Source: a virus. From it: a DNA stretch of 64,000 bases. Positions 8,817 through 64,000 of this stretch are shown here, one piece after another (position 1 is the first letter of the stretch; each line of letters starts with the position of its first letter). Under the pieces are notes generated by a model. That model saw nothing but the letters and a program-made list of their open reading frames with translations, was not told the DNA's origin and ran no database searches. The stretch covers positions 64,514 through 128,513 of the IMG/VR virus record IMGVR_UViG_3300031578_000005; one strand, 5' to 3'. The translations under genes were made by a program, and so were the position numbers.

Positions 8817-8826
8817 CATTTTAATT

Positions 8827-8900: not shown

Positions 8901-8915
8901 CAAAATAAAAATAAT

Positions 8916-9157: not shown

Positions 9158-9163
9158 TATTAC

Positions 9164-9256: not shown

Positions 9257-9268
9257 CAAACAATTTAA

Positions 9269-9497: not shown

Positions 9498-9521
9498 AAA
9501 ATTTTTAATTTATTATTAAAT

Positions 9522-9596
9522 AGAGATGTAGCTGAGTAGGTTTAGCACCAGTTTGAAGGTCTGGGATTAACGTGGGTTCGATTCCCACCGTCTCTA
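9522..9596 (+). tRNA. tRNA-Phe(GAA)
   Basis: agagatg/cgtctct acceptor, loop ttGAAgg, gtggg-ttcgatt-cccac. Confidence 0.7.
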
Positions 9597-9711
9597 CACA
9601 AGGTCTTATGAATGTTATTAATTAAACATATTATATTGTTACAATTATATATTACATTATTTTTATGAATTATTTAGTATTTATATTAAATTCGTCTATA
9701 AGACATGAATT

Positions 9712-10941
9712 ATGCAATTAGTTGAACAACATATTATCAATCGTAATCATATATTCTATAATGAATGTGATTCGTTATGTTTTAAAACTAAAAATCTATA
9801 TAATTCATGTTTATATGTCATACGTCAGGCATATATCAATGATAAGGTTAATTTATTATATGATTTACACTCATTAATGAAAGATACTGAACAGTATAAA
9901 GAACTACCCGCTAAAGTGTCTTCCACAGTGTTGTTAATGATTCAAAAGAATTTCAAATCTTATTTCAAATCAAATGCAGAATTTTATAAAAATTCATCTA
10001 AATTTAAAGATAGACCTAAATTACCCAATTATTTGGATAAAATAAATGGTAGATATTTTGCTTCATATACAAATCAAGCCATATCAAAAAAAGTGTTTAA
10101 TAAATCACATAAAATATTATTATCTAAAACCAACATCGAGTTAACAACCAAAATAGTTGATTTTAATATCATCGATTGTGTTAGAATTGTACCGAGATTA
10201 GACCACTATGTTATTGAAATAGTATATACCATTCCAGATAAACCTAAATTACCTAACAATAATAAATATTTATCTATTGATTTTGGTGTTAATAATTTAG
10301 CAACAATAACGTCAAATGTTAAAGATGTTAAACCTATTATTATTAATGGTAGACCATTAAAATCAATTAATCAATATTATAACAAAAAACTGGCACACTA
10401 TAAATCTAAATTAGAATTGATTAATAAAAAGAAACATAGCAATAGGACAAGGAAATTGACTAACAAAAGAAAAAATAAAGTTGATTATTATTTACATAAA
10501 GCAAGTAAGACAATTGTTAGTTTAACAAAAAACAATAATATTAACACCATAATAATAGGTAAGAACGATAATTGGAAACAAGGTATCAACATGACAAAGG
10601 CTAATAATCAAAACTTTGTTAATATACCACATAGTAGATTTATAGATATGATTATTTATAAATGCGAAATAGAAGGAATCAATGTTATACTACAAGAAGA
10701 AAGTTACACAAGTAAAGCATCTTTTTTAAACTTAGATAATATACCTATTTATGGTGATAATCAAAAAAAGCATTTCAGTGGTTATCGTTATAACAGGGGT
10801 TTATATAAAATAAGAGGAAGAAAAGAATTTATTAATGCAGATGTGAATGGTAGTTATAACATATTAAGAAAAGCAATCCCAAAAGCATTTGCTGATGGGA
10901 TAGAGGGTATAGGAGTATATCCAATTAAACTTATGATTTAA
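9712..10941 (+). mobile_element. tnpB: IS200/IS605-family TnpB (RNA-guided nuclease); no tnpA seen (IS1341-like)
   Basis: RuvC motifs SIDFGVNNLA, QEESYTSK and INADVNGSYNI; OrfB-like N-terminus. Confidence 0.85.
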
Positions 10942-22672: not shown

Positions 22673-23524
22673 ATGAAAAACAAATTACAACAACATATAA
22701 AACACATTAAAACGATGTTTTATACTCTCATTGGGTGCAAGTTGAAGAGGAAAGATAGTACTAACTATATTAGGCATTACGAATATCAATTAAGATATAT
22801 TGAAGATGGTTTTCATAAACAACTATTTGATCAAATTATGACATATATTGTAGCTGGAAGATTTAAAGAGAAAACATTTCTAATGACTGATTGTGTTGGA
22901 ACACCACCAAATGGTGAACATATGTTTTGTAATAAGTTGATTAGATTAAAAAGCACCGTAAATGAAACATACTCAACGATAACCGGATATGATACATTTC
23001 AAGTTGCAATTAATTTGTTTGATAGAAAATGTTTTGAAAATGATATAATATTTGATGTTGAGAATGAAAATCATATTAATGAAATATTGGAAATATATGG
23101 ATTACTAAAAAATAATTCAGATTACAATAAGGGGGTTGACATTGAAAAAGATTTTCTTCATAGTGGGTTATTTTTTATTGAAAAGGGTAAAATTTGTTAT
23201 TATATCATTAAAAAGGATGATAATGATAAAATGTTTATACGTGATAAAAAATATGTCGAAAACAATAGTGTATTTAATGATTATTTATTTTTATCATTCG
23301 ATATTACAGATGCAAAATATGACAATACCAATGAGATAATCGAATATTGTAAAAACTCAATAAGAAAACATTATAAACTAAAAGAAGATACGAAACATCT
23401 TGATTTAAAAGATAGGTTTTCGTTTATAATATTCGATGATGATAATAAAATAAAGAACTTACCTTATTTAAATAACATTGATTTTGTATTATCTGAAATT
23501 GGTTGTAAATATGAAGATATTTAA
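22673..23524 (+). CDS. Hypothetical protein carried in attC-like cassette (true start may be downstream)
   Basis: 283-aa ORF bounded by attC-like sites. Confidence 0.55.
   Translation: MKNKLQQHIKHIKTMFYTLIGCKLKRKDSTNYIRHYEYQLRYIEDGFHKQLFDQIMTYIVAGRFKEKTFLMTDCVGTPPNGEHMFCNKLIRLKSTVNETYSTITGYDTFQVAINLFDRKCFENDIIFDVENENHINEILEIYGLLKNNSDYNKGVDIEKDFLHSGLFFIEKGKICYYIIKKDDNDKMFIRDKKYVENNSVFNDYLFLSFDITDAKYDNTNEIIEYCKNSIRKHYKLKEDTKHLDLKDRFSFIIFDDDNKIKNLPYLNNIDFVLSEIGCKYEDI
22682..22738. repeat. Short attC-like site
   Basis: AAATTACAAC-aac-a-tataaaaca..tgttttata-ctctc-ATTGGGTGC. Confidence 0.6.
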
Positions 23525-23539
23525 GGATAATAACAACCA

Positions 23540-23675
23540 GCACCCAACACCGTGTATAGTGCATTTGGTGGGTATAGGTTATTTGTAATACATCACATTT
23601 AATTAACATTATAATGACTTGATAATTAGGTGCAATAAAAACCAAACGCCACCATACACGTCAACGTTGTAATTT
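23540..23675. repeat. attC-like site
   Basis: GCACCCAAC-acc-gtgtatagtgcatttggt...accaaacgccaccatacac-gtcaac-GTTGTAATTT. Confidence 0.7.
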
Positions 23676-23733
23676 ATTTAAATCACAATATAAATGATAA
23701 ACATTTTATGAATAAAAATAATTAAAAATTAAT

Positions 23734-24768
23734 ATGAAAGATTTGAAACCAAAATTCGATTTTAATGATATATCATTAGTACCTGCGATATTATCCAATA
23801 TCATTTCAAGAAATGAGATAAATATTTTTGACATTAACAATAAATTACCAATATTTGTGTCACCAATGGATACAGTCGTTGATGATGGTAATTATAAAAC
23901 ATTCATTGATTTAGGCATGTATGTTTGTATGCCAAGAAATTATAGCGAATCAAATAAAAAATATGAAGATGAATGCTTCATTTCTTATGGTCTTGATGAT
24001 ATTGAATCAATCATAAATAACGGCGAAGAACTACCAAAAAGGGTATTAATCGATGTTGCTAATGCACATTCAATCAGGGTATATGAAGTATCAAAAAAGA
24101 TTAAAGAAAATTATAATATTGAATTAATGGTTGGTAATATTGCCAATCCAGAAACATATATTAAATATGCAAAAATTGGTGTCGATTATATTCGCTGTGG
24201 AATTGGTGCGGGGCAAAGCTGCACAACTTCAGCAAATAGCTCCATACATTATCCAATTGCTTCATTAATACATGAAATATCAAAAATAAAAAAAGAATTA
24301 AAATTTAAAAACGCACCAAAGATTATTGCTGATGGTGGATTTAAAAACTATGATGATGTAATTAAGGCAATTGGAATTGGTGCTGATGGCGTGATGTTGG
24401 GCAGTATTATAAATAAATCTATTGAGTCTTGTGGTGATAATTTTATAGTAAAAAATAATGAATATATTAAGATTGATAATGACGATGCAATAAAATTATA
24501 TGGAGAAGGAATAACAATTTTTAAAAGATTTAGAGGCATGAGTACAAAAGAAGTCCAAATAAAATGGGGGAAAAAAGAGTTGCGCACATCCGAAGGAATT
24601 GTTAAATTTAACAAAGTCGAATATTCGATATCGGGATGGATTGATAATTTTAAGGATTATTTAAAATCATGCATGTCATATCAAAATAAACTAAATATTT
24701 CTGAATTTATTGGTAATTCTGATTTTATCTTTATAACAAAAAATGCATATGACAGATTCAATAAATAA
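23734..24768 (+). CDS. IMP dehydrogenase/GMP reductase family protein
   Basis: FDFNDI, SPMDTV, IDVAN, GNIA, GIGAGQSCTT (catalytic Cys), IADGG, VMLGS, FRGMS, SEG. Confidence 0.85.
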   Translation: MKDLKPKFDFNDISLVPAILSNIISRNEINIFDINNKLPIFVSPMDTVVDDGNYKTFIDLGMYVCMPRNYSESNKKYEDECFISYGLDDIESIINNGEELPKRVLIDVANAHSIRVYEVSKKIKENYNIELMVGNIANPETYIKYAKIGVDYIRCGIGAGQSCTTSANSSIHYPIASLIHEISKIKKELKFKNAPKIIADGGFKNYDDVIKAIGIGADGVMLGSIINKSIESCGDNFIVKNNEYIKIDNDDAIKLYGEGITIFKRFRGMSTKEVQIKWGKKELRTSEGIVKFNKVEYSISGWIDNFKDYLKSCMSYQNKLNISEFIGNSDFIFITKNAYDRFNK

Positions 24769-25168
24769 AACAGATAATCTAGCAGAAATCATCAGTAGTT
24801 TATCTACCAATGAGATTAATAACTTATATGGTAAATATTCAGATGTTCTGGAACTCTATGTAATTAGAAATCGTGAACAGTTGCCATATCTAGCATATGC
24901 AATTGATACGGCATATAATTATATCAAAGAAAATCATGGCGATTTAGATAAGGACTGGAAAACAATGACAGTTCTGGTAATAACGAAACTATTAATTGAT
25001 GGTAATATTAATAGCGTAAATGATGTGACAAAATTAATTGATGATTTCATCAAGTACCATAATCAAAATTATGAAAAATATGTTAATGACTTGATTATTT
25101 TTGATGATATTGATAATTATTTAAGATTCACACATAAATTCACGGGGAAAAACATCAATAATAAATAG
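24743..25168 (+). CDS. Hypothetical protein
   Basis: ORF. Confidence 0.5.
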   Translation: MHMTDSINKTDNLAEIISSLSTNEINNLYGKYSDVLELYVIRNREQLPYLAYAIDTAYNYIKENHGDLDKDWKTMTVLVITKLLIDGNINSVNDVTKLIDDFIKYHNQNYEKYVNDLIIFDDIDNYLRFTHKFTGKNINNK

Positions 25169-25175
25169 AGTATTT

Positions 25176-25406
25176 ATGAACAAAGACGACATTATGGAAA
25201 GATCAATTAAATACCGGAGATTTGAAGAATTCTTAAATACTGCTTCAAATACATCAGATGAATCATCATTACAAATTTTTCTTGATAAATTAGTTACTGA
25301 GGGTTGGAACATTATTTATTATAACGAAGAAAAAACCGACCCGAATCATAAGGACGAATTACATGTTGTTATTTTAGCAAACAAACGACAAAATAGCATT
25401 ATATGA
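25176..25406 (+). CDS. Hypothetical protein
   Basis: ORF in operon. Confidence 0.5.
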   Translation: MNKDDIMERSIKYRRFEEFLNTASNTSDESSLQIFLDKLVTEGWNIIYYNEEKTDPNHKDELHVVILANKRQNSII

Positions 25407-25573
25407 GCAAAGATTCTGGATATTTAGTTGAAACTAAAACAGGCAAAAATGGTAGAACATACCATCGTGAGAACTTAATCGATAAAAAAATAATTGTCCA
25501 CGTTATTGATGATAACAACCTGAAAATATTATGCGATCCCCAAACAATAAAAATTACTGGATATATTGATTAA
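25403..25573 (+). CDS. Small hypothetical protein (not in ORF track)
   Basis: MSKDSGYLVETKTGKNGRTYH...ITGYID*; overlaps upstream stop (ATGA). Confidence 0.5.
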   Translation: MSKDSGYLVETKTGKNGRTYHRENLIDKKIIVHVIDDNNLKILCDPQTIKITGYID

Positions 25574-25578
25574 AAGCT

Positions 25579-25992
25579 ATGATTATGGAAAATATTAAAT
25601 TAATACCAAAACACACTTATCTATTTAAAATTAGATCATCAAATAATTTAAGTGCCGGAACAATACTTGCAATTACAAATACTGCATGCTATATCAAATG
25701 GAATAATGGTAGTAATAATACATATATATGGTATGAGAAGGAATATGTTGATATATACATGAGCATTATTGAAGACATTACAGAATTTGATGATGTTGTT
25801 AATACCAAACGGGTATTGAATGATGTTGTTAATACCAAACGGGTATTGAATGATGCCGTAACACCAATAAAATATATTCCATGCAGGAAATGTAACGGTA
25901 CTGGTAAAATCCTTGATGACGGATCAAGTACTGGTGATAGTGTTTGCAATATCTGTTGGGGAGCAAAGATCACCGTTATTGGTGGAGATTAA
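25579..25992 (+). CDS. Hypothetical protein with DnaJ-like zinc finger
   Basis: CRKCNGTG...CNICWG. Confidence 0.55.
   Translation: MIMENIKLIPKHTYLFKIRSSNNLSAGTILAITNTACYIKWNNGSNNTYIWYEKEYVDIYMSIIEDITEFDDVVNTKRVLNDVVNTKRVLNDAVTPIKYIPCRKCNGTGKILDDGSSTGDSVCNICWGAKITVIGGD
25791..25855 (+). repeat. In-frame 30-bp tandem duplication
   Basis: tgatgttgttaataccaaacgggtattgaa x2 (DVVNTKRVLN x2). Confidence 0.9.
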
Positions 25993-26296
25993 TTGTGATT
26001 TCAAATATACGTTGATCAATATAATGGTTTGACTCGACTATTTTAACATCGAATTTATTGTCGATATCGAAAAACATCAAACCAATGTCATCAGGTAAAT
26101 TATCTGGATATTTTACGGCAATTTCAAAATAAATTTGATGGGCATTAACATAATTTATTTGAACGATAAAATCAAAATTTTCCTTCAATAATTCTAAGCC
26201 GGATAATAACTTCGAGTTTAATTTAATAAGTTCTGCATTTACTTTTAATGCTTTAGCCGAATTTATTATTGTGATGTTCTCATAAATGTCATACAT
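25976..26296 (-). CDS. Hypothetical protein
   Basis: ORF. Confidence 0.5.
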   Translation of the reverse strand: MYDIYENITIINSAKALKVNAELIKLNSKLLSGLELLKENFDFIVQINYVNAHQIYFEIAVKYPDNLPDDIGLMFFDIDNKFDVKIVESNHYIDQRIFEITINLHQ

Positions 26297-26397
26297 AAGT
26301 CTGTAATTTTACAGAAGTAAATTTAATCAAAATTACTTTAAAATGCAATAGTATTTATAAATAAATAAATAGATTTTATCACGTTAATTATAAACAC

Positions 26398-27303
26398 ATG
26401 AATAATTATTATCAGATATTAATTATGAATAGTGGCAACATCATTCATAATGCTTTTGCGACATCACATAAAGACTTAATCAATAAGTATTTGGCCAATT
26501 CAGATGTTCAAAATAAAACATATTTTAAAGCAACATTTACACCCAGAGAAAATTCCAGACTAGATGATGTAGATAATTACCAATTGATTATAAATGAAAA
26601 TTATGTTCCCGAATGGTTTCATGGTGAATTGGCAGAAAATATCGTCATTGACTTAAAAATAATAATCACTTCAATGATAATCAGAAGCTATAAACGGCTA
26701 TTATTAAATGAGGGTGCAATACTAATTGGTAATGCAATAATTGATGACGTTAAGAATTCAATTGTTTTTGGAATGTATGATAACGCCAAAATAAAAACAC
26801 TGGATGATACTTCAAGAATTATATTAATGACAGGTAGTGCTGGTGTAGATGTTATGACTGATGTTACAATTATTGATGAAATGCGTGAAGGTGCAAGCGT
26901 CAGGCAAATGCTGGGCTATAGTAAGATATTATCAATGTTCGAACAAACACGTGTTAATTCAATTAATGACTACGCCAGAATTGGTATATTAAAAGGAAGT
27001 TCAAAAATAAATGAAATGCATGATGATTCAAAAGCCGATAGACTTAAACACATCTCATCAATAACTGAAATGCATGGTCACGCAGTTATTGAGGAAATGT
27101 GGGATTGGTCAGTTGTTGAGAAAATGTTCGATCAATCAAAAATTAATTACATGGACGAAGATACTAAGGTCTTGGAAATGTATGGTGAATCAACCATTAA
27201 TGAAATGCATGGAAATGCTGTTGTTGAGAGATTATGCGAAAATTCATTGGTGAGAAAATTATATAATGCCGCACAAATACTAAGAAATGAACTTGAAGGA
27301 TAA
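26398..27303 (+). CDS. Repeat protein (9-aa IxEMxxxS repeats, probable beta-solenoid)
   Basis: INEMHDDS, ITEMHGHA, IEEMWDWS, VLEMYGES repeats. Confidence 0.6.
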   Translation: MNNYYQILIMNSGNIIHNAFATSHKDLINKYLANSDVQNKTYFKATFTPRENSRLDDVDNYQLIINENYVPEWFHGELAENIVIDLKIIITSMIIRSYKRLLLNEGAILIGNAIIDDVKNSIVFGMYDNAKIKTLDDTSRIILMTGSAGVDVMTDVTIIDEMREGASVRQMLGYSKILSMFEQTRVNSINDYARIGILKGSSKINEMHDDSKADRLKHISSITEMHGHAVIEEMWDWSVVEKMFDQSKINYMDEDTKVLEMYGESTINEMHGNAVVERLCENSLVRKLYNAAQILRNELEG

Positions 27304-27304
27304 T

Positions 27305-27637
27305 ATGTTGAAAAAATTAGTAATTATAATGTTGATGTTAATCAGTATGAACGCATCTGCTAAACATTATCGGATATATAATTATAATGGCAGTAAATGT
27401 GAGATGATTAGTTATAATGACAATCTCGAATTAGATGGTACCTGCAAAACATGGAATAATAACGTCTTAATCAGCATCAGTCACTATAAAAACGGCATCA
27501 AAACCCGGACGTGGAAAGTCTATTATCGCAATGGCGGTTTAGAATATAAAATTAAATACAGAAATGGTGTAAAGACTGGCACGTGGAAACATTATGACGA
27601 ACATGGTGTTGTTATTGAAGAAAAACAATATCAGTAA
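27305..27637 (+). CDS. Secreted MORN-variant repeat protein (YwqK-like)
   Basis: Signal peptide; YKNGIKTRTWKVYYRNG / YRNGVKTGTWKHYDEHG repeats. Confidence 0.7.
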   Translation: MLKKLVIIMLMLISMNASAKHYRIYNYNGSKCEMISYNDNLELDGTCKTWNNNVLISISHYKNGIKTRTWKVYYRNGGLEYKIKYRNGVKTGTWKHYDEHGVVIEEKQYQ

Positions 27638-27711
27638 TTGCTATAAACATAACGTAATTTTAAGCTATGGAGAAAAACACAGACAGTACATATAAATGCA
27701 TCTGTTAAAAC

Positions 27712-27910
27712 TCCAAAAAATTTCCAGAATTTTTTGATGGCCAGAATTTTTGCTAATTACTTATAGCATAAGGATTTTCGGAATTTTTGAAAATTTTTTC
27801 TGGGAAAATTTTTGCAGTCTTTATGTGAGGCTACAAGTGTAGCACCCCGGCCCCCTCAGAGGGGGGGTCTAACGGGGGGGTGTAAGGGGGGGATACGTAG
27901 GGGGTGGGGT
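27712..27910. other. Phased A/T-tract + G-tract element (candidate genome end, packaging site or origin)
   Basis: Repeated (g)aattttt tracts at 27712-27815, then G7-N6-G7-N5-G7-N7-G5-T-G4 at 27861-27909. Confidence 0.5.
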
Positions 27911-28006
27911 GTATATATGTTAAAACCATATAAGACTTAAATAAACCCAGCAAATTCGAAAGATAATATAAAAGTAATACATCACACCCATTTAGGATAG
28001 GAATTA

Positions 28007-28036
28007 AAAAACAGGGCTAAAACTGGCCCTGTTTTG
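28007..28036 (-). terminator. Terminator of 28056..28622
   Basis: aaaacagggc..gccctgtttt with flanking A-run. Confidence 0.6.
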
Positions 28037-28055
28037 GTTGGTGTTTTAGTGGATG

Positions 28056-28622
28056 TTATTTAACACGTTCGAGGGTTTCACCATTGATTTTAATTTCGTC
28101 GAGGTTTCCAACGAGGAAATCCCTGAATTTATCTGATCGAAGATCGAGGTGTTTTTTTATTGCTGATTTGGCAAGCGTTTTGTCTGAACTTTTTACGGTT
28201 TTATATTGGCCTTTTACCAGAACTTTTTTACTAATGCTTTGACCGAAAATATGAACCTGCATAGTATCTTTATGCAAACGTATTGCAGGGGTTAAATTAA
28301 TATAAGCATCAATTTGTCCCTTGCTTTGGTTGCTATGATCTTCAATATCAGCTGATAGGTTTTTTTCTGCTGATGCAAGCAATTCCTGTAGTGCTTGTTT
28401 GCAAATATCCACGGCAATACCAGAACTGGCAGAAATATTTAACAAGTCATTGTCATTGCAGGCTTTCAATCGTTGCAGATCGGTTTCTTTTGCATTTTTA
28501 ACGCTGATGTTAACATTTACAACATAGTTTGCGATCTCCATCGTTGATTTGCTTTCATAACCATTAATGGCAATGAATGAACTACCTTTTAAGTTTTGAA
28601 ATTTGTCGAAAAATGCTTTCAT
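28056..28622 (-). CDS. Hypothetical phage protein, divergent from ECF sigma gene
   Basis: 188-aa ORF; ECF-type promoter on minus strand at 28651-28678. Confidence 0.7.
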   Translation of the reverse strand: MKAFFDKFQNLKGSSFIAINGYESKSTMEIANYVVNVNISVKNAKETDLQRLKACNDNDLLNISASSGIAVDICKQALQELLASAEKNLSADIEDHSNQSKGQIDAYINLTPAIRLHKDTMQVHIFGQSISKKVLVKGQYKTVKSSDKTLAKSAIKKHLDLRSDKFRDFLVGNLDEIKINGETLERVK

Positions 28623-28826
28623 AATATCGATGTTTTGGTTTATATGTACTAATACGGTTTTTACTGGAAAAGGTTACAAAATAACTAGTTTTTTTCTGAT
28701 AAAACCAGATTATTTTTATCTTTGCCCGATATTTACTGCCATTATATATATATTGAAATTATCTGCACTCATAACTATTTGATTTACAGCGATGTTACAA
28801 ATTAATTAAAAATAATCTAATAAAAA

Positions 28827-28854
28827 TGCAACCTTTTTTGTAACATATCGTACA
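28827..28854 (+). promoter_or_regulatory. Putative autoregulatory ECF promoter
   Basis: TGCAAC-16nt-CGTACA directly upstream of sigma gene. Confidence 0.55.
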
Positions 28855-28904
28855 CAGGGATATAAAACAAAACAAACACAGTACTAACAATAAATTTTGA
28901 CAAG

Positions 28905-29597
28905 ATGAAAGCAAATGTAAATAACAAAAAAAATCAGAGTAGGTACAACAAGTCTGAAATTTTGAAACGGGCATGGAAAATTTTCAAGTCAGAAAACAAT
29001 GATAAGAACTTTGGTGATTGCTTGCGTGAAAGTTGGAGTATTGCCAAAAATGGTAATAACGTATCTACTTTTGAGGAGATATATAAAAAGTATAATAAAC
29101 AACTATACTATTTTATACTGGCAATGATAAAAAACGAAGACAGTGCCAAAGAAATTCTGCAAGATGTTTTCATGAGGTTAGACCGGCATTTTGAGGAGTA
29201 TGATGTATATAAGGCAAAAATTTCGACATGGTTACATACAATAGCGAAGAATCTTGTAATTGACTATATAAGAAAAGAAAAACAAACCCGTAACACCGTT
29301 AATGTGAGTGATTACGTAGATAGTGAAGGCAACGAATTTTTTATTGTTCCTGATAGCAGTAAAAGTTCGGGTTTAGTTGAGAATAAAGAGATCAGCGTAA
29401 AAATCGAATTAGCATTTGCAAATTTAAGTCCTAAACTCAAAAAAATCGCTGAATTGTATTTTATTGAGGAAAAACAATATCTGGAAATTTCAGATATTTT
29501 AAATATGCCAATGGGATCGGTAAAAGGTTATATTAATCGCATACGCTTGCAATTACAAACTGAATTAAAACAAGTCTACCAAACCATTGATCAATAG
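28905..29597 (+). CDS. ECF-type RNA polymerase sigma-70 factor with N-terminal extension
   Basis: Region 2 (FEEIYKKY..LY..AKEILQDVF..ISTWLHTIAKNLVIDYIRK) and region 4 (LSPK..YLEISDILNMPMGSVKGYINR). Confidence 0.9.
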   Translation: MKANVNNKKNQSRYNKSEILKRAWKIFKSENNDKNFGDCLRESWSIAKNGNNVSTFEEIYKKYNKQLYYFILAMIKNEDSAKEILQDVFMRLDRHFEEYDVYKAKISTWLHTIAKNLVIDYIRKEKQTRNTVNVSDYVDSEGNEFFIVPDSSKSSGLVENKEISVKIELAFANLSPKLKKIAELYFIEEKQYLEISDILNMPMGSVKGYINRIRLQLQTELKQVYQTIDQ

Positions 29598-52234: not shown

Positions 52235-52847
52235 GTTATATGCAATGCTACGTTTGTGCTTCGTGTTAAGTTTCATCGTAACATTCTTTTTGTTTTATTT
52301 TCCCAACGCTCTTAAAAATTCATTAATACTTTTAGTTGTTTCAAAACCTTCACCCGTGTGAAAAAAATAGTTTTGAAGTTTTCCATTTCGAGTTATAAAC
52401 CCTTGTGATTTAACCTTTGTTGGTATTCCCATATATGGTGTTTTACCATCAACATCATCTGAATCTATAATTGTGTATTTTTCTCCATAGTTAGCACCAT
52501 TATAAAAGTCTTCTTTTCCAGAAACCTTAATATCATATTTACCCAACACATAAATAATTCCATTTACGGAATCTGGTTCAATTTCAGTGTTTTCATTTAA
52601 CTTTCCACCAAAGTTTTTCACTTGGTCAATTAATTTTCTCATTTCGTTTTCCATATATTTTATTTTACATATAAATATTCAGAATTAAATTTTCCACCAC
52701 ACAAAAATAAAACAAAAGGGTTCATCTCTCGTATCAAGTTTATTGTTAAATCCGCACAGCATATAACAACGTGTATAAAATATAGCCAATTAAGGTCTGT
52801 GGTTTATATCAAATGTTGTGTGTGGCTACGTTTCATACACGCAGCCG
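52235..52847. mobile_element. Solitary attC-like cassette, inverted relative to the 56-64 kb array
   Basis: Starts GTTATATGC (52235), ends GCATATAAC (52759-52767), then hairpin gtgtat..tagcc...ggcta..atacac and GTT (52847). Confidence 0.7.
52295..52654 (-). CDS. Cassette cargo protein with MRKLID..LNE N-terminus
   Basis: 119-aa ORF; TATTTAT motif upstream. Confidence 0.6.
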   Translation of the reverse strand: MENEMRKLIDQVKNFGGKLNENTEIEPDSVNGIIYVLGKYDIKVSGKEDFYNGANYGEKYTIIDSDDVDGKTPYMGIPTKVKSQGFITRNGKLQNYFFHTGEGFETTKSINEFLRALGK

Positions 52848-52997
52848 TTAGCATAATCAACACTGACATTAGTATGAGTTTAAGTATGGATTAAAGAACA
52901 AATATTATAATTTGATGTTTTTTGTAACATCTACAGGATTTTTACGTATAGGAATTAAATAATTAAAACAATAAATTCAATCTAAAAACTTCTGACT

Positions 52998-56724: not shown

Positions 56725-56807
56725 GTTTCTTGGTATTATGCTTAACTGCTAAGTATATGGTGCATTGCAATTAGATGCACTAATTTTTAAATTTTAAATA
56801 CACACAA

Positions 56808-57167
56808 ATGAAAAATAAAGGGATTAAACAACAACCCACAGAGTCAAGCAATGATTTATATACATTGTCATGCCCCGTTGATTTATTTCGTTATTTCCTG
56901 CGTAAAAACTACAAGGATATAGATATAAGTAATGAAGAGTGTGATGGCATTGGAGAAGAATTTTACGAATACCTGCGAAACTTGAATTTAACCGAAGAGC
57001 AAAAGCGAAACATATTGCCTAAAAATACATTTGACGTAATATTAAACAGCGAACACCCATTCAGAACTAATGGCTTTCCTGCCGCTTATGTTATACATTT
57101 TGCGCAATTTGTAGAGCAGCAGAAACAAAAAGCGTTGGCAGAAGGTTATGATCCAAATGGGGCATAA
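56808..57167 (+). CDS. Cassette ORF starting inside hairpin loop
   Basis: Stop codon is the TAA of core TAAC 57165. Confidence 0.6.
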   Translation: MKNKGIKQQPTESSNDLYTLSCPVDLFRYFLRKNYKDIDISNEECDGIGEEFYEYLRNLNLTEEQKRNILPKNTFDVILNSEHPFRTNGFPAAYVIHFAQFVEQQKQKALAEGYDPNGA

Positions 57168-57201
57168 CTGCTGCAAATATATATTTTAGTTAAATTTTGA
57201 T

Positions 57202-57483
57202 ATGGTACAAATTATTTTAGAACAGATAAATGAAGTAAGCAAATTTTGTGTAGGAAAAAATATTTCTTACATAAAATTTGACTATACAAAAGACTATTCA
57301 ATATTAACACAAATAGGAATAAATGGATACAATATTTATTTAGAAATATTTTTTGATGTAAAATCTGATACAGTAGAAGATGTGTGTGTTAATGTATATA
57401 AAGACAAGAAATGTAAATTTGCTTACGGAGGAACTATGAAAGATTGTTTGAAACGAATTACTGATGAAATCAAATTTAATTAA
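57202..57483 (+). CDS. Hypothetical protein wholly inside an attC-like loop
   Basis: Flanked by caaatatat..ttaaattttgat / atcaaatttaa..atatatttg arms. Confidence 0.6.
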   Translation: MVQIILEQINEVSKFCVGKNISYIKFDYTKDYSILTQIGINGYNIYLEIFFDVKSDTVEDVCVNVYKDKKCKFAYGGTMKDCLKRITDEIKFN

Positions 57484-57521
57484 ATATATTTGTTGTTATA
57501 ACATTCAGTTAATTATTGATT

Positions 57522-57737: not shown

Positions 57738-57814
57738 TTGGATGTAACGGTCGGCAATATGAAGCGGTTGTAATTAGATGCACTAATTTTTAAATAACTA
57801 AAAACGATAATAAA

Positions 57815-57997
57815 ATGAACAAACTTAAAATTAAAGAGTATGCCAACAATGCATTATATACTGTATTAGTTGCCGTGTTTTTGTGGGTGATGGTTAGTAA
57901 TACCATACAGGCTTTTAAATGCCCAAGTATGACACGCACACAACTGTTTTTACACACACCTAAATCGTTTGTGTGTGATTGGCAACATTGCAACTAA
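57815..57997 (+). CDS. Cassette ORF, small membrane protein
   Basis: Starts in loop; stop is core TAAC 57995. Confidence 0.55.
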   Translation: MNKLKIKEYANNALYTVLVAVFLWVMVSNTIQAFKCPSMTRTQLFLHTPKSFVCDWQHCN

Positions 57998-58097
57998 CGT
58001 TTTTCATATCTTAAATAATAACATCAAGTTTAATAAATGTTCTTGTAACATCTGCAAAATCTTTACGTATAAGTATTCACAATAAATCGATAAGTAT

Positions 58098-58541
58098 ATG
58101 AAAAATTTAGAATTTAAAGGATTTGATGGACACTTGATATTATTATGTAAAAGTCATTATAAACTCACCGAAAGCTTTATCGAGAGTTTAAAAATGATCT
58201 GGGCAATAAGATGTGGATATCCTTATGATAAAAACGATAATTCATCTATAAGATATATTTTAGATGGATTATATAAGATTCTTGAACCTACAATTGAAAA
58301 TCCTCAACAATTTCAAGAAAAATTACATGAGAGTTTAATTTCGTGTATTTATGACCTCAATACATTGGAGAAGTTAGTACTTTTCTATCGTGATGAAATA
58401 TCCATGCTTCAAGTGCGTGAAAAATCCGCTAATGGTAAATGGACGACCTTAATTAAATTACCCCAGCCCCAAAAAAGATTATTTAATAGAATATTAACGG
58501 GTAATGGTAGATATGATGATTACAAATTAATTCAAAAATAA
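58098..58541 (+). CDS. Hypothetical protein
   Basis: ORF after ECF promoter at 58043. Confidence 0.6.
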   Translation: MKNLEFKGFDGHLILLCKSHYKLTESFIESLKMIWAIRCGYPYDKNDNSSIRYILDGLYKILEPTIENPQQFQEKLHESLISCIYDLNTLEKLVLFYRDEISMLQVREKSANGKWTTLIKLPQPQKRLFNRILTGNGRYDDYKLIQK

Positions 58542-59454: not shown

Positions 59455-59796
59455 ATGAGCGATTTAAAAGTAGAAGATTTTTTTAGAAAATGGGTAGGAA
59501 CTAGACCCAATTTAAAGACAGCCTTTCATGAAGCTGGAATTGAAGCTATGGCATTTGCAGTAGCTTACCATAAAGCACTACAGAAAGCGAATGAGGCTGA
59601 AACGGGAGAAAGCAACTGCACTATATTTGGTGTTATACACTGGGCGTTTTTACCAGAACAGACACCAAGCTACGGTGATGAAATACTATTAGTTTACCCA
59701 CCAGAGCAAATGACAAAGCCGATTGTTACAATATACGATAGAAATACAGAATGGATTGATGGTTGCAAGTACGCAGTTATTACGCCTTGTGTATAA
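59455..59796 (+). CDS. Hypothetical protein reading through an attC-like right arm
   Basis: GTTATACAC at 59632 is complementary to GTGTATAAC at the stop (59789-59797). Confidence 0.55.
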   Translation: MSDLKVEDFFRKWVGTRPNLKTAFHEAGIEAMAFAVAYHKALQKANEAETGESNCTIFGVIHWAFLPEQTPSYGDEILLVYPPEQMTKPIVTIYDRNTEWIDGCKYAVITPCV

Positions 59797-59861
59797 CGGA
59801 AAGTATATGTTTTCGGTTGCGATTAAAAGCAGCTAATCATCAATTACAAATAAACTTACAA

Positions 59862-60122
59862 ATGGGAGTAAAAGGAATAAGAACGAACGAAACCGCAACT
59901 GAAATATATACAGTGTTACCAACTTTTAAAATTAATTTACTAAAATATATCAAAATGAGAAAATGGATTAATTTAATACGATTTATCAAAAAGCACCGAA
60001 GTAGAGGCATTGCTTCCTTTAGTGTAGTAACCAATAGCGATACTTTCATAATAACCACAGAAGATTGTGAACAAACAGAAGCTTCTTGGAAAGAAAATAT
60101 GCTTAGGATACCTTACAGATAG
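59862..60122 (+). CDS. Cassette ORF, hypothetical
   Basis: ATG in hairpin loop, or at downstream MRKWIN. Confidence 0.5.
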   Translation: MGVKGIRTNETATEIYTVLPTFKINLLKYIKMRKWINLIRFIKKHRSRGIASFSVVTNSDTFIITTEDCEQTEASWKENMLRIPYR

Positions 60123-60224
60123 CCGCAATGCTGGCATTAATTTTTATTGTGGGTAACGTTGAGTATTGGCGTTTGTTGCCGATTAGAAAGCACTTAATTA
60201 TCAAATTACTAAACACTTTATAAA

Positions 60225-60428
60225 ATGGAAAATACTTCAAATACCCACGAAAACGGCAATAACGCTAATACTGTGTTATGTGGCGTTATTGATAGGATAT
60301 TAACCGAAAAGAAAGTAGATAGTTGTCCCAAAATATTACCACAATGCCAATTAGGTGATGTTTGCATATTATGTGATACAATGACTAAAGATAAGCCTAA
60401 AAACTGTCTTAGACATAATGCCACATAA
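60225..60428 (+). CDS. Cassette ORF, Cys-rich, with MENTSNTHENG leader
   Basis: Starts in loop; stop is core TAAC. Confidence 0.55.
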   Translation: MENTSNTHENGNNANTVLCGVIDRILTEKKVDSCPKILPQCQLGDVCILCDTMTKDKPKNCLRHNAT

Positions 60429-60495
60429 CGTTGAGTATTGGCGTTGTTGCCGATTAGAAACCACAAAATTATTAATTTACTAAATACTTTATAAA

Positions 60496-60708
60496 ATGGA
60501 AAATACTTCAAATACCCACGAAAACGGCAATTGCGCTAACCGTGTGTTAGCGGTTGTTACTCCTGAAATGGAGCAATTCGCAAGTGAATATGGTTTATTT
60601 ATCATATCAGTAGGGCAAAAATATATCAATGCTTTATCGCCTGATTTTACGACAGAAAGCAGTATGGAAATATTTAAACGTGAGTATTGGGGTCGGAAGT
60701 GGTTTTAA
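60496..60708 (+). CDS. Cassette ORF with same MENTSNTHENG leader
   Basis: Hairpin near-identical to 60154-60278. Confidence 0.55.
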   Translation: MENTSNTHENGNCANRVLAVVTPEMEQFASEYGLFIISVGQKYINALSPDFTTESSMEIFKREYWGRKWF

Positions 60709-60822
60709 TAACCGCTAACGTTGACAATAAGAAATGTATGGGATTTAGAAGCAGTAACCTATCCACATACACCGAACTAAATTAAATTTGCATTTGTAAT
60801 TATATTTGTGTATATTTGTAGT

Positions 60823-61377
60823 ATGAAAGCATACGTTTATACACATACAAGATTAGATACCAATGAAATATTTTATGTTGGCATTGGAACACAAGACAAT
60901 TACAGGAGGGCATCAAAAACGGTAAATAGGTCTGTATTTTGGAAAAACATAATAAATAAAACTGGATGGAAAGTAGATATTGTTTTTGATAATTTAAGTT
61001 GGGATAAAGCTTGTGAAATAGAAAAAGAATTAATAATAAAATATGGGCGTAAAGATTTATGTTTAGGTAGTTTAGTTAATTTAACAGACGGAGGTGACGG
61101 AAATTCTGGAAGAAAAATATCACAAGAAACAAGACAAAAAATGTCAAATATGAAAAAAGGCGTTCCAAAATCTGATGAACATAAAAAAAATATGAGTATA
61201 GCACTAAAAAACAATAACAGTACAAAAGTGATTGATACAAATACAGGCTTTATTTATAATTCTGTACACGAAGCAGCTGAAGAAAATGGGTTAAAAAACT
61301 ATGTTTTAAGTAACTACTTAACTGGTAGAACGAAAAACAACACGACATTAAAATATTATATTGATAAAACTTGTTAA
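60823..61377 (+). CDS. GIY-YIG-like homing endonuclease with NUMOD3/NUMOD1-like DNA-binding modules
   Basis: YVYTH..FYVGIG..R; LVNLTDGGDG; SQETRQKMS..SDEHKKNMS; YNSVHEAA; upstream TAnnTTTG promoter. Confidence 0.75.
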   Translation: MKAYVYTHTRLDTNEIFYVGIGTQDNYRRASKTVNRSVFWKNIINKTGWKVDIVFDNLSWDKACEIEKELIIKYGRKDLCLGSLVNLTDGGDGNSGRKISQETRQKMSNMKKGVPKSDEHKKNMSIALKNNNSTKVIDTNTGFIYNSVHEAAEENGLKNYVLSNYLTGRTKNNTTLKYYIDKTC

Positions 61378-61505
61378 AGTTTAATTATAAAACAATTAAG
61401 GCGAAGAAGCGTAGCCTTTATGAACGCTTCATAGTACAACTGCACAATTTGGCACAAACACCCATATATTTTTTATTGTGTGTTACCACCAGTATTTTAT
61501 TCATC

Positions 61506-61673
61506 ATGGCTAAAAAAACTAATAAGAAAATTAACTGGAGTAAATGTGATAAACCTTACAAAGAGATATTTCACGGAATTTGCTTCAATTATTGCATAAA
61601 TCGAAACTGCTTAATATCGAAAGAAACGTGTGTCGCTTATCAAAAATGGGATAAGTCCGATGGGGTCTTTTAA
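61506..61673 (+). CDS. Cassette ORF, small Cys-rich
   Basis: Between GTT 61482 and TAAC 61683. Confidence 0.45.
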   Translation: MAKKTNKKINWSKCDKPYKEIFHGICFNYCINRNCLISKETCVAYQKWDKSDGVF

Positions 61674-61726
61674 TATTGGCGGTAACGGTTGCAAATATGA
61701 AACGTTACAACACAAATGATAATTAA

Positions 61727-61754
61727 TGTAACAAAAATTGAAAATTAACGTATA
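61727..61754 (+). promoter_or_regulatory. ECF-type promoter inside an attC-like loop
   Basis: TGTAAC-aaaaattgaaaattaa-CGTATA. Confidence 0.6.
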
Positions 61755-61812
61755 ATATAATTGCAACACAACAGCAATGTTTTATATTTGTTGTTATAAA
61801 CATGTAAAAATT

Positions 61813-61998
61813 ATGGAGCAGAAAAAATTAGTAGAAAAGTTGATTAAGGCATCAAATGAAATTTCTAAAAATAGAAAACCGAGTGCCAATTATATACATC
61901 TAAGTAAAGAATATATACAACAGCAAGCAGATGAACGAAAAATTTCATTTGATGACATGGTAGAAATTATTAAAAAGGAACTGATGCCTAATGAATAA
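61813..61998 (+). CDS. Cassette ORF, hypothetical
   Basis: Between GTT 61793 and TAAC 62012. Confidence 0.55.
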   Translation: MEQKKLVEKLIKASNEISKNRKPSANYIHLSKEYIQQQADERKISFDDMVEIIKKELMPNE

Positions 61999-62096
61999 TT
62001 TTTATTGTTTATAACATTGAATGTATGTGTAGTACAGCCTTGCACATATTTTCAACTTAAAACTAAACTTAATTGGCTGTATTACATATACATATT

Positions 62097-62216
62097 GTTA
62101 TAAAACGTTTATTATGATTGACAAACTACATACAGAAATTGAAAACTTCATAAATTCAGATAATGACTGGATGCGTAAAACCTATGAAGTCGATGAAGCA
62201 AATACTTATACACCTT
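62097..62216 (+). pseudogene. Truncated cassette fused to next right arm
   Basis: GTTATAAAAC start lacks a complementary end; ORF MIDKLH.. runs into cttatacacct-tGTTA. Confidence 0.45.
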
Positions 62217-62338
62217 GTTATATGCTGTGCGGAAATATACCACTAAACTTAAATCGAAGAACTAAACCTTTTTGTTTTATTTTTGTGGGAGGATTTTAAA
62301 AAATTGAATATTTATATAGAATAAAACTATTTAATAAT

Positions 62339-62887
62339 ATGGAATTAAGAAAATTTATAGCAACTACTATACGTGAATATTTGAACGAACAAGAAATTGG
62401 TGGAAGTGGGTTGATTTTATATCATGGTTCTGGTGAAGATAAACCATTTGAAAAATTCAATAACAATCAATTTTTCACGGTAAATGATTATATTGCATGT
62501 AATTATGCTGAAAATAATGGTGGCTTACTCTATAAGGTTAAAACAGATATAAGAAAAACTTTAGAACTTAAAGGTAATTATGTAAGTCTTGGTGGAAAAT
62601 CTATGAAAACTATCGAACCAGAACAATATGAGTTAGAATATAGTTTAGTGAAAAAATTATATGGTGATTCAGCTTTAGAACATTGGTTGAATCATGGATT
62701 TAATCCAAGTCCTGCACATGTTTTTAACGGTGATTATACAGCAATAATTAATTGGGCAAAAAATAATGGTTATGATTCTATTAAATTTTTTGATGAGTCA
62801 TTTGATACATTTGTTAGGGATATTACGTATATAATTTTTAATGGAAATAATATTAAAATTATTGATGTTAGTGAACCTGATTGCTAA
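62339..62887 (+). CDS. Putative ADP-ribosyltransferase-fold (ART-PolyVal-like) cassette cargo with IREYLNE N-terminus
   Basis: LYHGS..F..F..FFT..A..YA...GYDSI..YIIF..NIK. Confidence 0.6.
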   Translation: MELRKFIATTIREYLNEQEIGGSGLILYHGSGEDKPFEKFNNNQFFTVNDYIACNYAENNGGLLYKVKTDIRKTLELKGNYVSLGGKSMKTIEPEQYELEYSLVKKLYGDSALEHWLNHGFNPSPAHVFNGDYTAIINWAKNNGYDSIKFFDESFDTFVRDITYIIFNGNNIKIIDVSEPDC

Positions 62888-63051
62888 AAATAAAACAAAA
62901 AGAATGTTACGATGAAACTTAATACGAAGCAGAAACGCAGCATTGCATATAACGGACGGCAATATATGTAGTTGCCTTGCACAAAACTTTAAAATTATTA
63001 TAAACCTTAATAGGCAATTACATATATTGCTTGTTAGCAACAGTACGGATT

Positions 63052-63285
63052 ATGAAAAAAATTGATGAATATAGCGAAAAAGCTGGTGCTTTATTTTTGA
63101 TAGAACAGCACACTATCGGTAATTTACGTGATGAAGCTGATTTGAATAACGCCAAATATCACGCACAACAGACAGTAGGTTTTATTGAAGATTTATTGTT
63201 GAATATAGATGGTACGATTGAAGATAAGATTCAATTTCTATCAAAAATAAAGGAAGAAATACCTAAATTTCACGGTAAGGGTTAG
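63052..63285 (+). CDS. Cassette ORF, hypothetical
   Basis: Between GTT 63033 and TAAC 63295. Confidence 0.55.
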   Translation: MKKIDEYSEKAGALFLIEQHTIGNLRDEADLNNAKYHAQQTVGFIEDLLLNIDGTIEDKIQFLSKIKEEIPKFHGKG

Positions 63286-63360
63286 TATTGTTGCTAACGG
63301 TCAAGCGTAAGATACGTTGCGATTTAATGCACAAATTTTTAAACTTATAAAAACATTGAT

Positions 63361-63579
63361 ATGAAACAGAAAAATAACAAATTAGCACAATTTAAGCAAT
63401 GGATTTTACGCTTTGTTATAGGGCGTTATTTCTATTACTTATTCAATATATTAGTTGGATTGGTCATTGCTTTATTAACATATCCATTTAGATTAATAGG
63501 TGGTAAAATAGGGTTAAAATCTGATATATGCTCATGGCTCGATAAACACTTTCCATTGCCTGATGATAATGCCCTATAA
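63361..63579 (+). CDS. Cassette ORF, membrane protein
   Basis: Starts in loop; stop is core TAAC 63577. Confidence 0.55.
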   Translation: MKQKNNKLAQFKQWILRFVIGRYFYYLFNILVGLVIALLTYPFRLIGGKIGLKSDICSWLDKHFPLPDDNAL

Positions 63580-63638
63580 CGGTCGCAGATATACTAAGTT
63601 TTTGATTAAATAGTAATAATTTTAAATAACAGATAACG

Positions 63639-63887
63639 ATGAAAAATGAACAAAAATATTATAACTTACCAGACCAAAAATTTGGTATATCTGGTGTTAT
63701 TAGTAATTATTCATGTCCAATATGTGATTTAGGACATAAACCTAAAAAAGTTTTTTATATTCCAATAAAAGATAAGAATGGAATACCAAAAGATAAATCA
63801 CTAAGAGTAATAGAAGGTAGTGAATTACATAAAAAACTTTTGAATGGTGGTACAAAATTGCCTATGTGCTGGATTGTTGAAGAATAA
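63639..63887 (+). CDS. Cassette ORF with CPIC motif
   Basis: Starts in loop, reads through GTT 63696. Confidence 0.55.
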   Translation: MKNEQKYYNLPDQKFGISGVISNYSCPICDLGHKPKKVFYIPIKDKNGIPKDKSLRVIEGSELHKKLLNGGTKLPMCWIVEE

Positions 63888-64000
63888 TTACTTATAACGT
63901 TGAGTATAAGAAACGTAGCGTTTTGAAATACTGAACAACAATAACTTACAAATGTAAAATTGAAATAGAAACTTAATATTAACCACAGGCTCAGCTATGT

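Follow-up and report, generated by a model that had tools for sequence, protein, structure and literature searches.

A putative integron-like cassette array of a T4-like phage, with candidate gene starts in the loops of its hairpins

In the window, i.e. the whole 64,000-nt stretch of viral DNA analyzed here, cassette ORFs start inside large hairpins delimited by TAAC and GTT cores and often stop on the TAA of a TAAC core. This observation, made in an earlier note on the DNA, was confirmed: for all seven ORFs listed there (56808, 57815, 59862, 60225, 60496, 63361, 63639), the hairpin loop holds the first ATG, which is the first in-frame ATG past a stop and lies 50 to 59 nt ahead of the G of the right core, and the ORF continues through the right arm of the TAAC...GTT hairpin. 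The five listed stops (57165, 57995, 59794, 60426, 63577) each coincide with the TAA of a TAAC core, and the two MENTSNTHENG proteins, described as unrelated beyond their hairpins, can be aligned over residues 1–21 (17/21 identical) and show no alignment thereafter. We consider it probable that the region from 56.7 to 64 kb of this T4-like phage (Gp23, Gp20, T4-type terminase) is an integron-like cassette array, of a type common to Bacteroidota phages and Bacteroidota chromosomes, with TAA|C as the main exchange point and with reversed genes. The parts of this explanation seen directly are anatomy, statistics, strand bias, linkage pattern and, in relatives, recombinase adjacency; it would mean that small accessory genes of a large phage are kept in swappable units, each headed by a recombination hairpin.

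Table 1. Sites and cassette features, in window coordinates (z, folding z-score; bits and E, covariance model).
Feature	Position	Strand	Details
Long hairpin site S1	56743..56869	+	TAAC 56743-56746; right core GTC 56867-56869; loop ATG of ORF 56808-57167; stem decayed, z -0.85
Cassette ORF, 119 aa	56808..57167	+	19-codon leader before core; stop is the TAA of the TAAC at 57165
Giant-loop site	57165..57498	+	Left arm after TAAC 57165; right arm and GTTA 57484-57498; entire 93-aa ORF 57202-57483 between arms; identified by eye, no model score; arm subtype that of site 61680
Long hairpin site S3	57745..57867	+	Right arm decayed, right core ATT; loop ATG of ORF 57815-57997; 17.1 bits, E 1.5; z +1.39
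Long hairpin site S4	59794..59917	+	TAA stops ORF 59455-59796; loop ATG of ORF 59862-60122; stem recovered in ssDNA folding
Long hairpin site S5, leader MENTSNTHENG	60154..60277	+	Loop start of ORF 60225-60428; z -2.56
Long hairpin site S6	60426..60548	+	TAA stops ORF 60225-60428; loop ATG of ORF 60496-60708; twin of S5, distal right arm diverged; stem not recovered, z +1.57
Long non-coding-loop site	60716..61485	+	Interrupted by GIY-YIG homing endonuclease gene 60808-61377; next gene begins past GTTA, at 61507
Long site, non-coding loop	61680..61803	+	36.1 bits; first ATG (61777) in right arm; second ATG at 61813, after GTT
Short site	62009..62107	+	81.2 bits; z -2.50; inverted repeats I6, I12; next gene start 62114, 17 nt past G of GTT
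Short site	62947..63043	+	97.2 bits; z -4.53; inverted repeat I5; next gene start 63052, 19 nt past G of GTT
Long hairpin site S11	63292..63425	+	34.5 bits; z -2.12; I16; loop start of ORF 63361-63579
Long hairpin site S12	63574..63706	+	26.6 bits; I10; TAA stops ORF 63361-63579; loop holds ATG of ORF 63639-63887
Left part of further site	63895..64000	+	Ends with contig
Short site	52757..52853	-	70.5 bits on minus strand; then ORF 52654-52295, same strand; inverted cassette of phage type
Long site	23538..23672	-	26.6 bits, E 0.016; abuts stop of plus-strand ORF 22673-23524; bacterial (classical) gene-site orientation

Several sites have deteriorated. The right core is mutated at two of them (GTC at 56867, ATT at 57865), and upon free ssDNA folding the arm-to-arm stem was the minimum-energy structure in only four of the seven long sites of the window (59794, 60154, 63295, 63577), with z-scores ranging from -2.56 to +1.57 over the seven; those at 56743, 57745 and 60426 are decayed and no longer fold well. 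After the TAAC at 57995, no site was recognized by the covariance model; the next ATG is enclosed by a non-canonical 19-nt inverted repeat (58011-58029 / 58132-58150). Hairpin and body of S1 recur at the L022 locus behind a different upstream gene.

The loop-start pattern is general and extends beyond this phage. A covariance model built from five sites of this phage genome returned, at E up to 10, 23 matches in that genome and L005 together; across 39 other viral contigs it gave 100 at E up to 0.1. The matching was strand-specific. Among the 108 sites surveyed in this phage and the 39 contigs, with 115 nt or more counted as long, a loop ATG opens an ORF of 40 aa or more in 29 of 50–51 long sites versus 2/57 short sites, and a loop ATG with an ORF of at least 40 codons appeared in 1/51 of the reverse-complemented long sites. 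ORFs of at least 40 codons are opened by 32/59 loop ATGs versus 26.5% of all array-strand ATGs, and a gene starts 0–60 nt past GTT in 40 of the 57 short sites. Family-wide, the core TAA serves as stop in 21/103 sites, and in 25/103 the ORF ends at an in-frame stop located 12 nt upstream. In this genome, 10 consecutive site pairs show complementarity between the 10 nt that follow GTT of one site and the 10 nt that precede AAC of the next.

A site opens with TAAC, followed by some 5 unpaired bases and the first strand of a stem of about 20 bp; then come the loop, the second stem strand, about 2 unpaired bases and GTTA. It folds on the phage sense strand. With cassette exchange mainly at TAA|C, a cassette would comprise C, the hairpin, GTTA plus a specific flank, the ORF, the complementary flank and TAA. 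Genes would thus be reversed relative to classical integron cassettes, with the site forming the 5' end of the gene it belongs to and a built-in TAA stop supplied by the conserved core. In the long form (122–138 nt), the loop carries an A-rich leader and the ATG, such that the first 16–20 codons are written in loop, right arm and GTT core; in the short form (about 85–100 nt), the gene starts 17–33 nt past GTT. As the loop holds the gene's start codon, the recombination site would also be the front end of the gene. A second, rarer kind of exchange, located inside the right arm or close to or at G|TTA, may re-pair hairpins with bodies and yield in-frame proteins with exchanged N-terminal leaders. 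Exchange on folded single strands may be catalyzed by an Xer-like recombinase, and the second exchange point might reflect the less favored strand or homologous recombination.

Read as a model, the fusion idea of the earlier note instead implies that crossover takes place at G|TT, the position used by classical cassettes; loop ATG and leader would then belong to the upstream cassette, and every capture would fuse the incoming body to its neighbor's leader. Several observations fit this model. Body identity of at least 85% was combined with leader identity of at most 25% in 12/25 protein pairs, break points lie at the right core in three locus pairs (L012_10643 vs L044_1484; L005 vs L022_5643; L027_4233 vs L043_5085), and the twin hairpins at 60155 and 60427 head unrelated bodies. 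In contigs of other metagenomes, the MENTSN-type hairpin is followed by different sequence directly after GTTA, with three consensus loose ends, all open in the leader frame. As a general rule, however, this mechanism appears unlikely to us. In 22 contexts of the ORF-56808 family, a single cassette family whose pairs are not independent, 19 pairs had bodies matching at an identity of 0.80 or more; in 9/19 of these close pairs the upstream core reached 0.79 identity or more, but the downstream core, belonging to the hairpin that crossover at G|TT would tie to the body, was co-inherited in 0/19 (maximum identity 0.64, background 0.60). That the upstream hairpin travels with the gene and the downstream one does not argues for TAA|C as the main exchange point. 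Since arrays moreover end with TAAC followed by a non-hairpin motif, and not with a complete hairpin followed by GTT, the hairpin would normally be the gene's own. Long homologies likewise terminate at left-core break points, the 382 nt shared by L017 and L044 and the 233 nt shared by L011 and L026 ending 2–7 nt past AAC, and by the recombinase geometry in the related phages G004 and G019 the antisense strand corresponds to the top strand of classical integrons. The interpretation of the earlier note is thus supported in part: reassortment of leaders and bodies is real, as the 12/25 pairs demonstrate, whereas fusion of captured DNA to a neighboring cassette's leader is, as a general rule, not supported by the linkage data and the array ends. 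A single crossover point does not account for all mosaicism, exchange at the right core being present as well.

A rather improbable alternative would see in the hairpins the promoter/terminator modules of a T4-like phage, with homologous recombination between conserved arms shuffling the genes without any site-specific recombinase, much as PeSLs, terminator/promoter motifs of T4-type phages, are described to mediate modular shuffling (PMC2839356, PMC4122927). The T4-like nature of the phage is in line with this, as are site arms that are highly conserved between contigs and exchange break points on both sides of and inside hairpins. Of 15 related viral records searched, 12 yielded no tyrosine recombinase, four array-bearing phage records rated 100% complete among them, and no PF00589 recombinase was found in the present contig (39% complete). 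Homologous recombination would nevertheless leave unexplained the complementary ends specific to each cassette, the conserved array-end motif beside a recombinase, and the same fold-strand bias in bacteria despite genes on the other strand. Matches to sigma-70-type promoters showed no enrichment (46 versus 47.8 +/- 6.6 in shuffles), with the reservation that the consensus may not fit a Bacteroidota host, and the large hairpins lack T runs after them.

A tyrosine recombinase of 266–270 aa follows the arrays in G004 and G019 and is also present in G017. It is short and Xer-like, scores under the curated cut-off of every NCBIfam model, and stands in related phages behind the array-end motif, which lies directly past the last TAAC at seven distinct places and about 45–50 nt before the recombinase start in G004 and G019. 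This genome has retained the motif together with a 23-codon remnant of the recombinase N-terminus (G000, about 62378-62480). In five site-carrying Bacteroidota genomes, a canonical integron integrase was not found, and no site was found adjacent to the closest recombinase homologues.

The claim of the earlier note that gene direction is antisense to that of classical gene-attC units is borne out by bacterial contexts and by recombinase geometry: of 18 sites of this family in Bacteroidota genomes, 12 directly adjoin the stop of an opposite-strand gene, and recombinase plus array-end motif of G004 and G019 fit the classical integron geometry only when the phage sense strand is taken as the bottom strand. 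In the reverse integrons of Treponema, the integrase gene is inverted and the cassettes keep the classical gene-then-attC order. The phage arrays resemble them in that integrase and cassette genes point in the same direction (10.1101/2020.05.09.085589, as far as described there), but in the phage arrays it is the genes within the cassettes that are inverted, with transcription running towards the recombinase. Among non-Watson-Crick stem pairs of 102 sites, G:T outnumbered A:C by 372 to 41 (54 to 7 in this genome); the 18 bacterial copies gave 87 to 2. The covariance model that assigned the strands favors G:U pairs by its own scoring, but the asymmetry of the spacers and the direction of the genes independently point the same way. 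Unpaired bases in the 102 sites amounted to 344 in the left versus 25 in the right arm; in classical attC bottom strands, the extra bases are found on the opposite arm. One might argue that the hairpin acts in mRNA, as a processing site, stabilizer or translational control element with the start codon in an open loop, DNA mosaicism being incidental; the G:T-compatible strand is indeed the sense strand in phages, and the ATG is placed in an A-rich, unpaired loop. Yet in those 12/18 bacterial copies the adjacent gene runs opposite to the favored fold strand and the fold is therefore not tied to mRNA, the end complementarity of each cassette and the recombinase adjacency require another cause, and no Rfam family matched; a pure RNA element is very unlikely.

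Returning to the cassette array, the loop ATG is probably used as start. Among 31 loop-start ORFs, seven contain no other in-frame Met and in eight more the next Met lies past codon 40. Across 36 homologues of ORF 56808, leader length is nearly constant while leader sequence varies and the body is conserved, and the leaders of the window and of L022 differ by an in-frame 3-nt indel. Met positions and leader-length conservation thus support the view of the earlier note that the recombination hairpin may host the translation start. Two loop-start ORFs of related phages have, as judged by eye, apparent lipoprotein signal peptides across the junction. That loop ATGs are unused, with real starts past GTT and with composition accounting for the frame that stays open across the arm, is hardly credible against these findings and the reverse-complement control, even if 10/31 loop-start ORFs do have another in-frame Met by codon 30 (e.g., at 59956 in ORF 59862, or Met 24 in ORF 60496).

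Virulent phages, including a Polaribacter (Bacteroidota) phage, were reported in 2023 to carry CALINs, and IntI1 recombined 5/6 tested phage attC sites (PMC9892861). As described there, CALINs share with the present arrays small cassettes separated by imperfect hairpins with ...AAC / GTT... cores, complementary ends specific to each cassette and, in some arrays, a tyrosine recombinase with a distinct site at one end. Unlike in that account, the recombinase here is Xer-like and lacks the segment that marks integron integrases, conserved extrahelical bases are missing and asymmetry resides in the spacers (5 nt vs 2 nt), the consensus short site matched none of 50,697 deposited phage records, and genes are reversed, which puts each site in front of its gene, with the candidate start codon inside the site. 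A translation start carried by a recombination site has a parallel in class 1 integrons, with ORF-11 and ORF-18 of attI1 and with short ORFs located inside attC sites; as ORF-11 extends across the crossover point, its product depends on which cassette is inserted, and cassettes without their own initiation region benefit (PMC8876359). These are short coupling ORFs in attI, rarely attC, of classically oriented cassettes, whereas here, in 29 of 51 long sites, the cassette protein's own first 16–20 residues would be encoded in an attC-like loop and arm. PeSLs are similar as small conserved stem-loops between accessory genes of T4-like plastic regions that act as gene-exchange points, but are portrayed as a terminator plus a sigma-70 promoter exchanged by homologous recombination; inverted ends peculiar to each cassette, AAC/GTT cores, a recombinase or a start codon in the loop go unmentioned in the abstracts (PMC2839356, PMC4122927). 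Our literature search found no paper describing a hairpin-headed, loop-start cassette system. As to the site interrupted by the homing endonuclease gene, endonuclease-free junctions occur in other contigs, joining 60786 to 61434 (runs X1, X2, X5) or 60786 to 61446 (X3).

Genes on the 128,513-base virus record, which is rated 39% complete and has the window as its second half, specify a major capsid protein and a large terminase, both T4-type, and a Gp20 portal protein with inteins; the G+C content is 26-33%. From ~56.7 kb to the contig end, small plus-strand ORFs are arrayed with imperfect hairpins between them, at least 12 such sites lying within 56.7-64 kb, each bounded by a left core TAAC and a right core GTT(A). 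According to the earlier note, several ORFs of this array start in the hairpin loop and often stop on the core TAA, and capture of DNA would create leader fusions. The observation was confirmed: for all seven ORFs named there, the first in-frame ATG after a stop lies in the loop, 50-59 nt 5' of the right-core G, and in 5/5 named cases the stop is TAA followed by C. The interpretation is partly supported, as the site indeed appears to double as the front end of a gene, but the main exchange would take place between TAA and C of the left core, so that a hairpin would go with the gene that follows it. No PF00589 tyrosine recombinase was found in this contig, and the array fits the CALIN definition (at least two attC sites, integrase absent nearby) only if the sites are counted as attC.

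Features of the array and its surroundings (window coordinates unless stated otherwise)
Position	Feature	Observation
9712-10941	TnpB-type gene	OrfB_IS605 and Cas12f-like TNB domain
23538-23672	Site	Classical gene-then-site order
56743-56869	Site S1	Heads cassette ORF 56808-57167
56758-56782	Small terminator-like hairpin with T tail, within S1	Part of its sequence repeated in the loop of site 57745
57165-57498	Site	Complete 93-aa ORF (57202-57483) between the arms, i.e. a whole gene in the loop (read by eye)
57995	TAAC	Recognisable site behind it not found
58011-58150	Inverted repeat after the TAAC at 57995, without GTT core	19 nt, 89% complementary, 102 nt between arms; encloses ATG of ORF 58098-58541
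60716-61485	Long site	GIY-YIG homing endonuclease gene (60808-61377) inside the loop
62009	Site	81 bits with the covariance model, 19 on the opposite strand
63639	ORF	Relative not found in viral contigs
23609-29215, minus (whole record G000; 4609-10215 of its stretch L002)	Portal gene	1868-aa frame with intein splicing, LAGLIDADG and HNH endonuclease domains
~62376-62475 (G000; 5376-5475 of its stretch L004)	Array-end motif and recombinase remnant	Upstream of the window

The site family was defined with a covariance model derived from five short sites of this genome and a hand-set structure, which replaced a duplex-energy scan and our own AAC...GTT stem scan, both too noisy (the latter, at score 28, gave 29 real matches versus 10 in shuffled sequence); aligning the long sites together with the short ones in MAFFT yielded no consensus fold. 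The model is strand-specific and also recovers long sites. Viral contigs matched by a 22-letter left-arm pattern number 39 and range from 4 to 325 kb; the model detects 100 sites in them at E up to 0.1, frequently as arrays. With the sites of this genome, those of L005 and two hand-added ones (60423, 56740), the total comes to 111 unique sites. AAC and xTT occupy the model core positions in 108 of the 111, and 1921 Watson-Crick plus 372 G:T pairs were counted among 2422 aligned stem positions. Rfam returned only a chance snoRNA match and a tRNA, and a match to the consensus short site was not found in deposited phage records. When the window sites were folded as single-stranded DNA, the arm-to-arm stem was the minimum-energy fold in 4 of 7 long sites, with z-scores of -2.56 to +1.57 for the seven and of -2.50 and -4.53 for two short sites; in two sites the right core is mutated.

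Where translation would begin differs between the two site classes. An ORF of at least 40 aa has its first ATG in the loop at 29/51 long sites (115 nt or more) versus 2/57 short ones; the first ATG lies in the right arm at 4/51 versus 1/57, and 0-60 nt after GTT at 14/51 versus 40/57; with the long sites reverse-complemented, a loop-ATG ORF appeared in 1/51. The reading frame is biased across GTT: of 31 loop-start ORFs, 15 have the core G as the first base of a codon, 14 as the third and 2 as the second, the last being a phase that would often give TAG or TAA. Upstream ORFs stop exactly on the core TAA at 21 of 103 sites, and at 25 of 103 they stop 12 nt before it in the same frame. As to whether the loop ATG is used, an alternative in-frame Met is missing altogether from 7 of the 31 loop-start ORFs, and in 8 more there is none up to codon 40. 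A leader of ~16-19 residues precedes the conserved body in all 36 homologues of ORF 56808; on average, bodies are 66% identical and leaders 20%. An in-frame 3-nt indel separates the leader in the window from that of locus L022, and two loop-start ORFs in related phages resemble, by eye, lipoprotein signal peptides across the junction. These features would be indirect evidence for use of the loop ATG. The two proteins starting with MENTSNTHENG have only residues 1-21 in common (17/21 identical).

The point of exchange could be narrowed down from array ends, homology boundaries and linkage. Arrays end with TAAC followed by non-hairpin sequence, and homology between L017 and L044 extends over 382 nt, that between L011 and L026 over 233 nt, in each case ending 2-7 nt after AAC. 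The 22 contexts of the ORF-56808 family include 19 close pairs, whose bodies match at 0.80 identity or more. Co-inheritance of the downstream core was seen in 0/19 of these (maximum 0.64, background 0.60), and in 9/19 the upstream cores reached an identity of 0.79 or above. Together, the three lines of evidence indicate that the main exchange point would be between TAA and C, the hairpin travelling with the gene behind it. The remaining 10 close pairs suggest a second exchange point at or near GTT. The same is suggested by the unrelated leaders seen on 12 of 25 near-identical proteins, by three break points at the right core, and by loose ends that occur just after GTTA in other metagenomes. 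This second exchange could involve whichever strand is less favoured, or the conserved arms could recombine by homology. Joints having a short side (20-31 letters), possibly those of other phages, were left out, except for an endonuclease-free allele in which contigs from four metagenome runs join 60786 to 61434 or 61446.

In the textbook view, an integron cassette is a promoterless gene with its recombination site behind it, and questions in the field include the origin of cassettes and their route to expression. In the phage arrays, the gene comes after its own hairpin and starts within it, unlike the classical gene-then-attC order; the phage gene being turned round, the folded site would provide its 5' end, start codon and first residues, and the conserved core its stop codon. 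We consider it possible, though rather doubtful, that this amounts to a dual-use module, an integron-like site run by a Xer-type enzyme combined with a portable expression head (leader, ATG, 16-20 N-terminal codons, perhaps a promoter), with heads and bodies reassorting into in-frame chimeras. Exchange between G and TTA, together with only two usable loop phases, would allow such reassortment in frame. If so, DNA placed behind a head would be translated, providing a built-in generator of new phage genes. In the arrays, a DNA structure for recombination is at the same time constrained by coding, in a form concrete enough to be tested, and they are an instance of natural N-terminal swapping among otherwise identical proteins. 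They also bear on the trade in small genes, including DNA methylases, among phages and with their hosts, and on the annotation of phage accessory genes, as starts inside hairpins are easily mis-called.

Cassette ends and fold asymmetries speak to the nature of the sites. In this genome, the 10 bases after GTT are complementary to the 10 before the AAC of the next site (10 consecutive pairs), and the same pair of ends recurs in 15 of 22 contexts of the ORF-56808 family; such per-cassette complementarity is the mark of integron cassettes. Among stem pairs that are not Watson-Crick, G:T outnumbers A:C (372 versus 41), and unpaired bases accumulate in the left arm (344 versus 25 in the right), mostly in the spacer beside the core, indicating that one strand has been selected to fold; conserved extrahelical bases were not seen in the site alignment. 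The same site family is present in Bacteroidota genomes, including Geofilum, Natronoflexus and Algoriphagus isolates, with 87 G:T versus 2 A:C pairs. Since this fold bias persists although 12/18 bacterial copies abut the stop codon of an opposite-strand gene, the fold is not tied to mRNA, which points to single-stranded DNA. The same 12 copies agree with the expectation that the phage cassette genes lie antisense to the classical orientation, the bacterial copies having the classical arrangement and the phage genes the reverse. In a model scan of three bacterial genomes, 150 of 406-1041 candidates were scored, so that no copy number follows. One 134-nt variant, whose structured loop is G+C-rich, is near-identical across distant Bacteroidota genera (L082, L068, L067, L062, L069 and others) and is located directly after opposite-strand gene stops.

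A candidate enzyme was sought in related viruses. A tyrosine recombinase of 266-270 aa is encoded in 3 of 15 related viral records searched, and is absent from four among these 15 that are rated 100% complete. In two of the three (G004, G019) it is located after the last cassette. The array end is marked at 7 distinct places by a conserved motif that follows the last TAAC directly and, in G004 and G019, lies ~45-50 nt before the recombinase start; it would be a candidate attI-like site. In the present record the motif, at ~62378 of G000, is followed by a 23-codon remnant of a Xer-like recombinase N-terminus and then by a tRNA region; this phage seems to have lost its recombinase. The enzymes of its relatives score 138-155 bits with the integron integrase model TIGR02249 (cut-off 265), in two stretches that skip the model middle, and 177-188 bits with their best family, XerA-like NF040815 (cut-off 220). 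By these profile scores, they are Xer-like recombinases, below every curated cut-off, that lack the integron-specific segment. Among five site-bearing Bacteroidota genomes none had a TIGR02249 match over the cut-off, and no sites were found beside their closest recombinase homologues. A weak 23.2-bit match in L089 was not seen again.

Set against the classical integron, the arrays share an imperfect inverted repeat with AAC and GTT as its closing cores and the cassette-specific complementary ends, but differ in recombinases without the IntI-specific additional segment and in phage genes that are neither 5' of their attC nor co-oriented with its top strand. Elements of phages and of Bacteroidota form a large family with integron logic and a different recombinase. 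Already known are CALINs in virulent phages, including a Polaribacter phage, with sites recombined by IntI1 (PMC9892861), the presence of translation starts within attI1 and of short ORFs within attC (PMC8876359), and PeSLs that shuffle genes in T4-type phages (PMC4122927); the novel side is an integron variant in which the recombination site would also be the front end of the gene. No description of reversed cassettes with loop-start proteins, or of the recombinase family, was found in the literature searched (supplementary files and subscription papers lying outside its scope). Regarding the PeSL hallmark, a strong sigma-70-like promoter coupled to a terminator stem-loop, promoter-like matches number 46 versus 47.8 +/- 6.6 in shuffled sequence, with a consensus that is not that of a Bacteroidota host, and the large hairpins carry no T tails. 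Hairpin ends of the IS200/IS605 type, for which the window does hold a TnpB gene, were rejected, there being no common end sequence and no link of that gene to the array. A MITE or transposon was rejected as well, as the inverted ends differ per cassette and pair across the cassette, not the site.

Between a 59-nt mini-site and the recombinase of record G019 (in L097) lies a cassette for a 262-aa protein, which has, by eye, a DNA methyltransferase-like motif near its N-terminus; its body is also found behind sites in L027 and L043.
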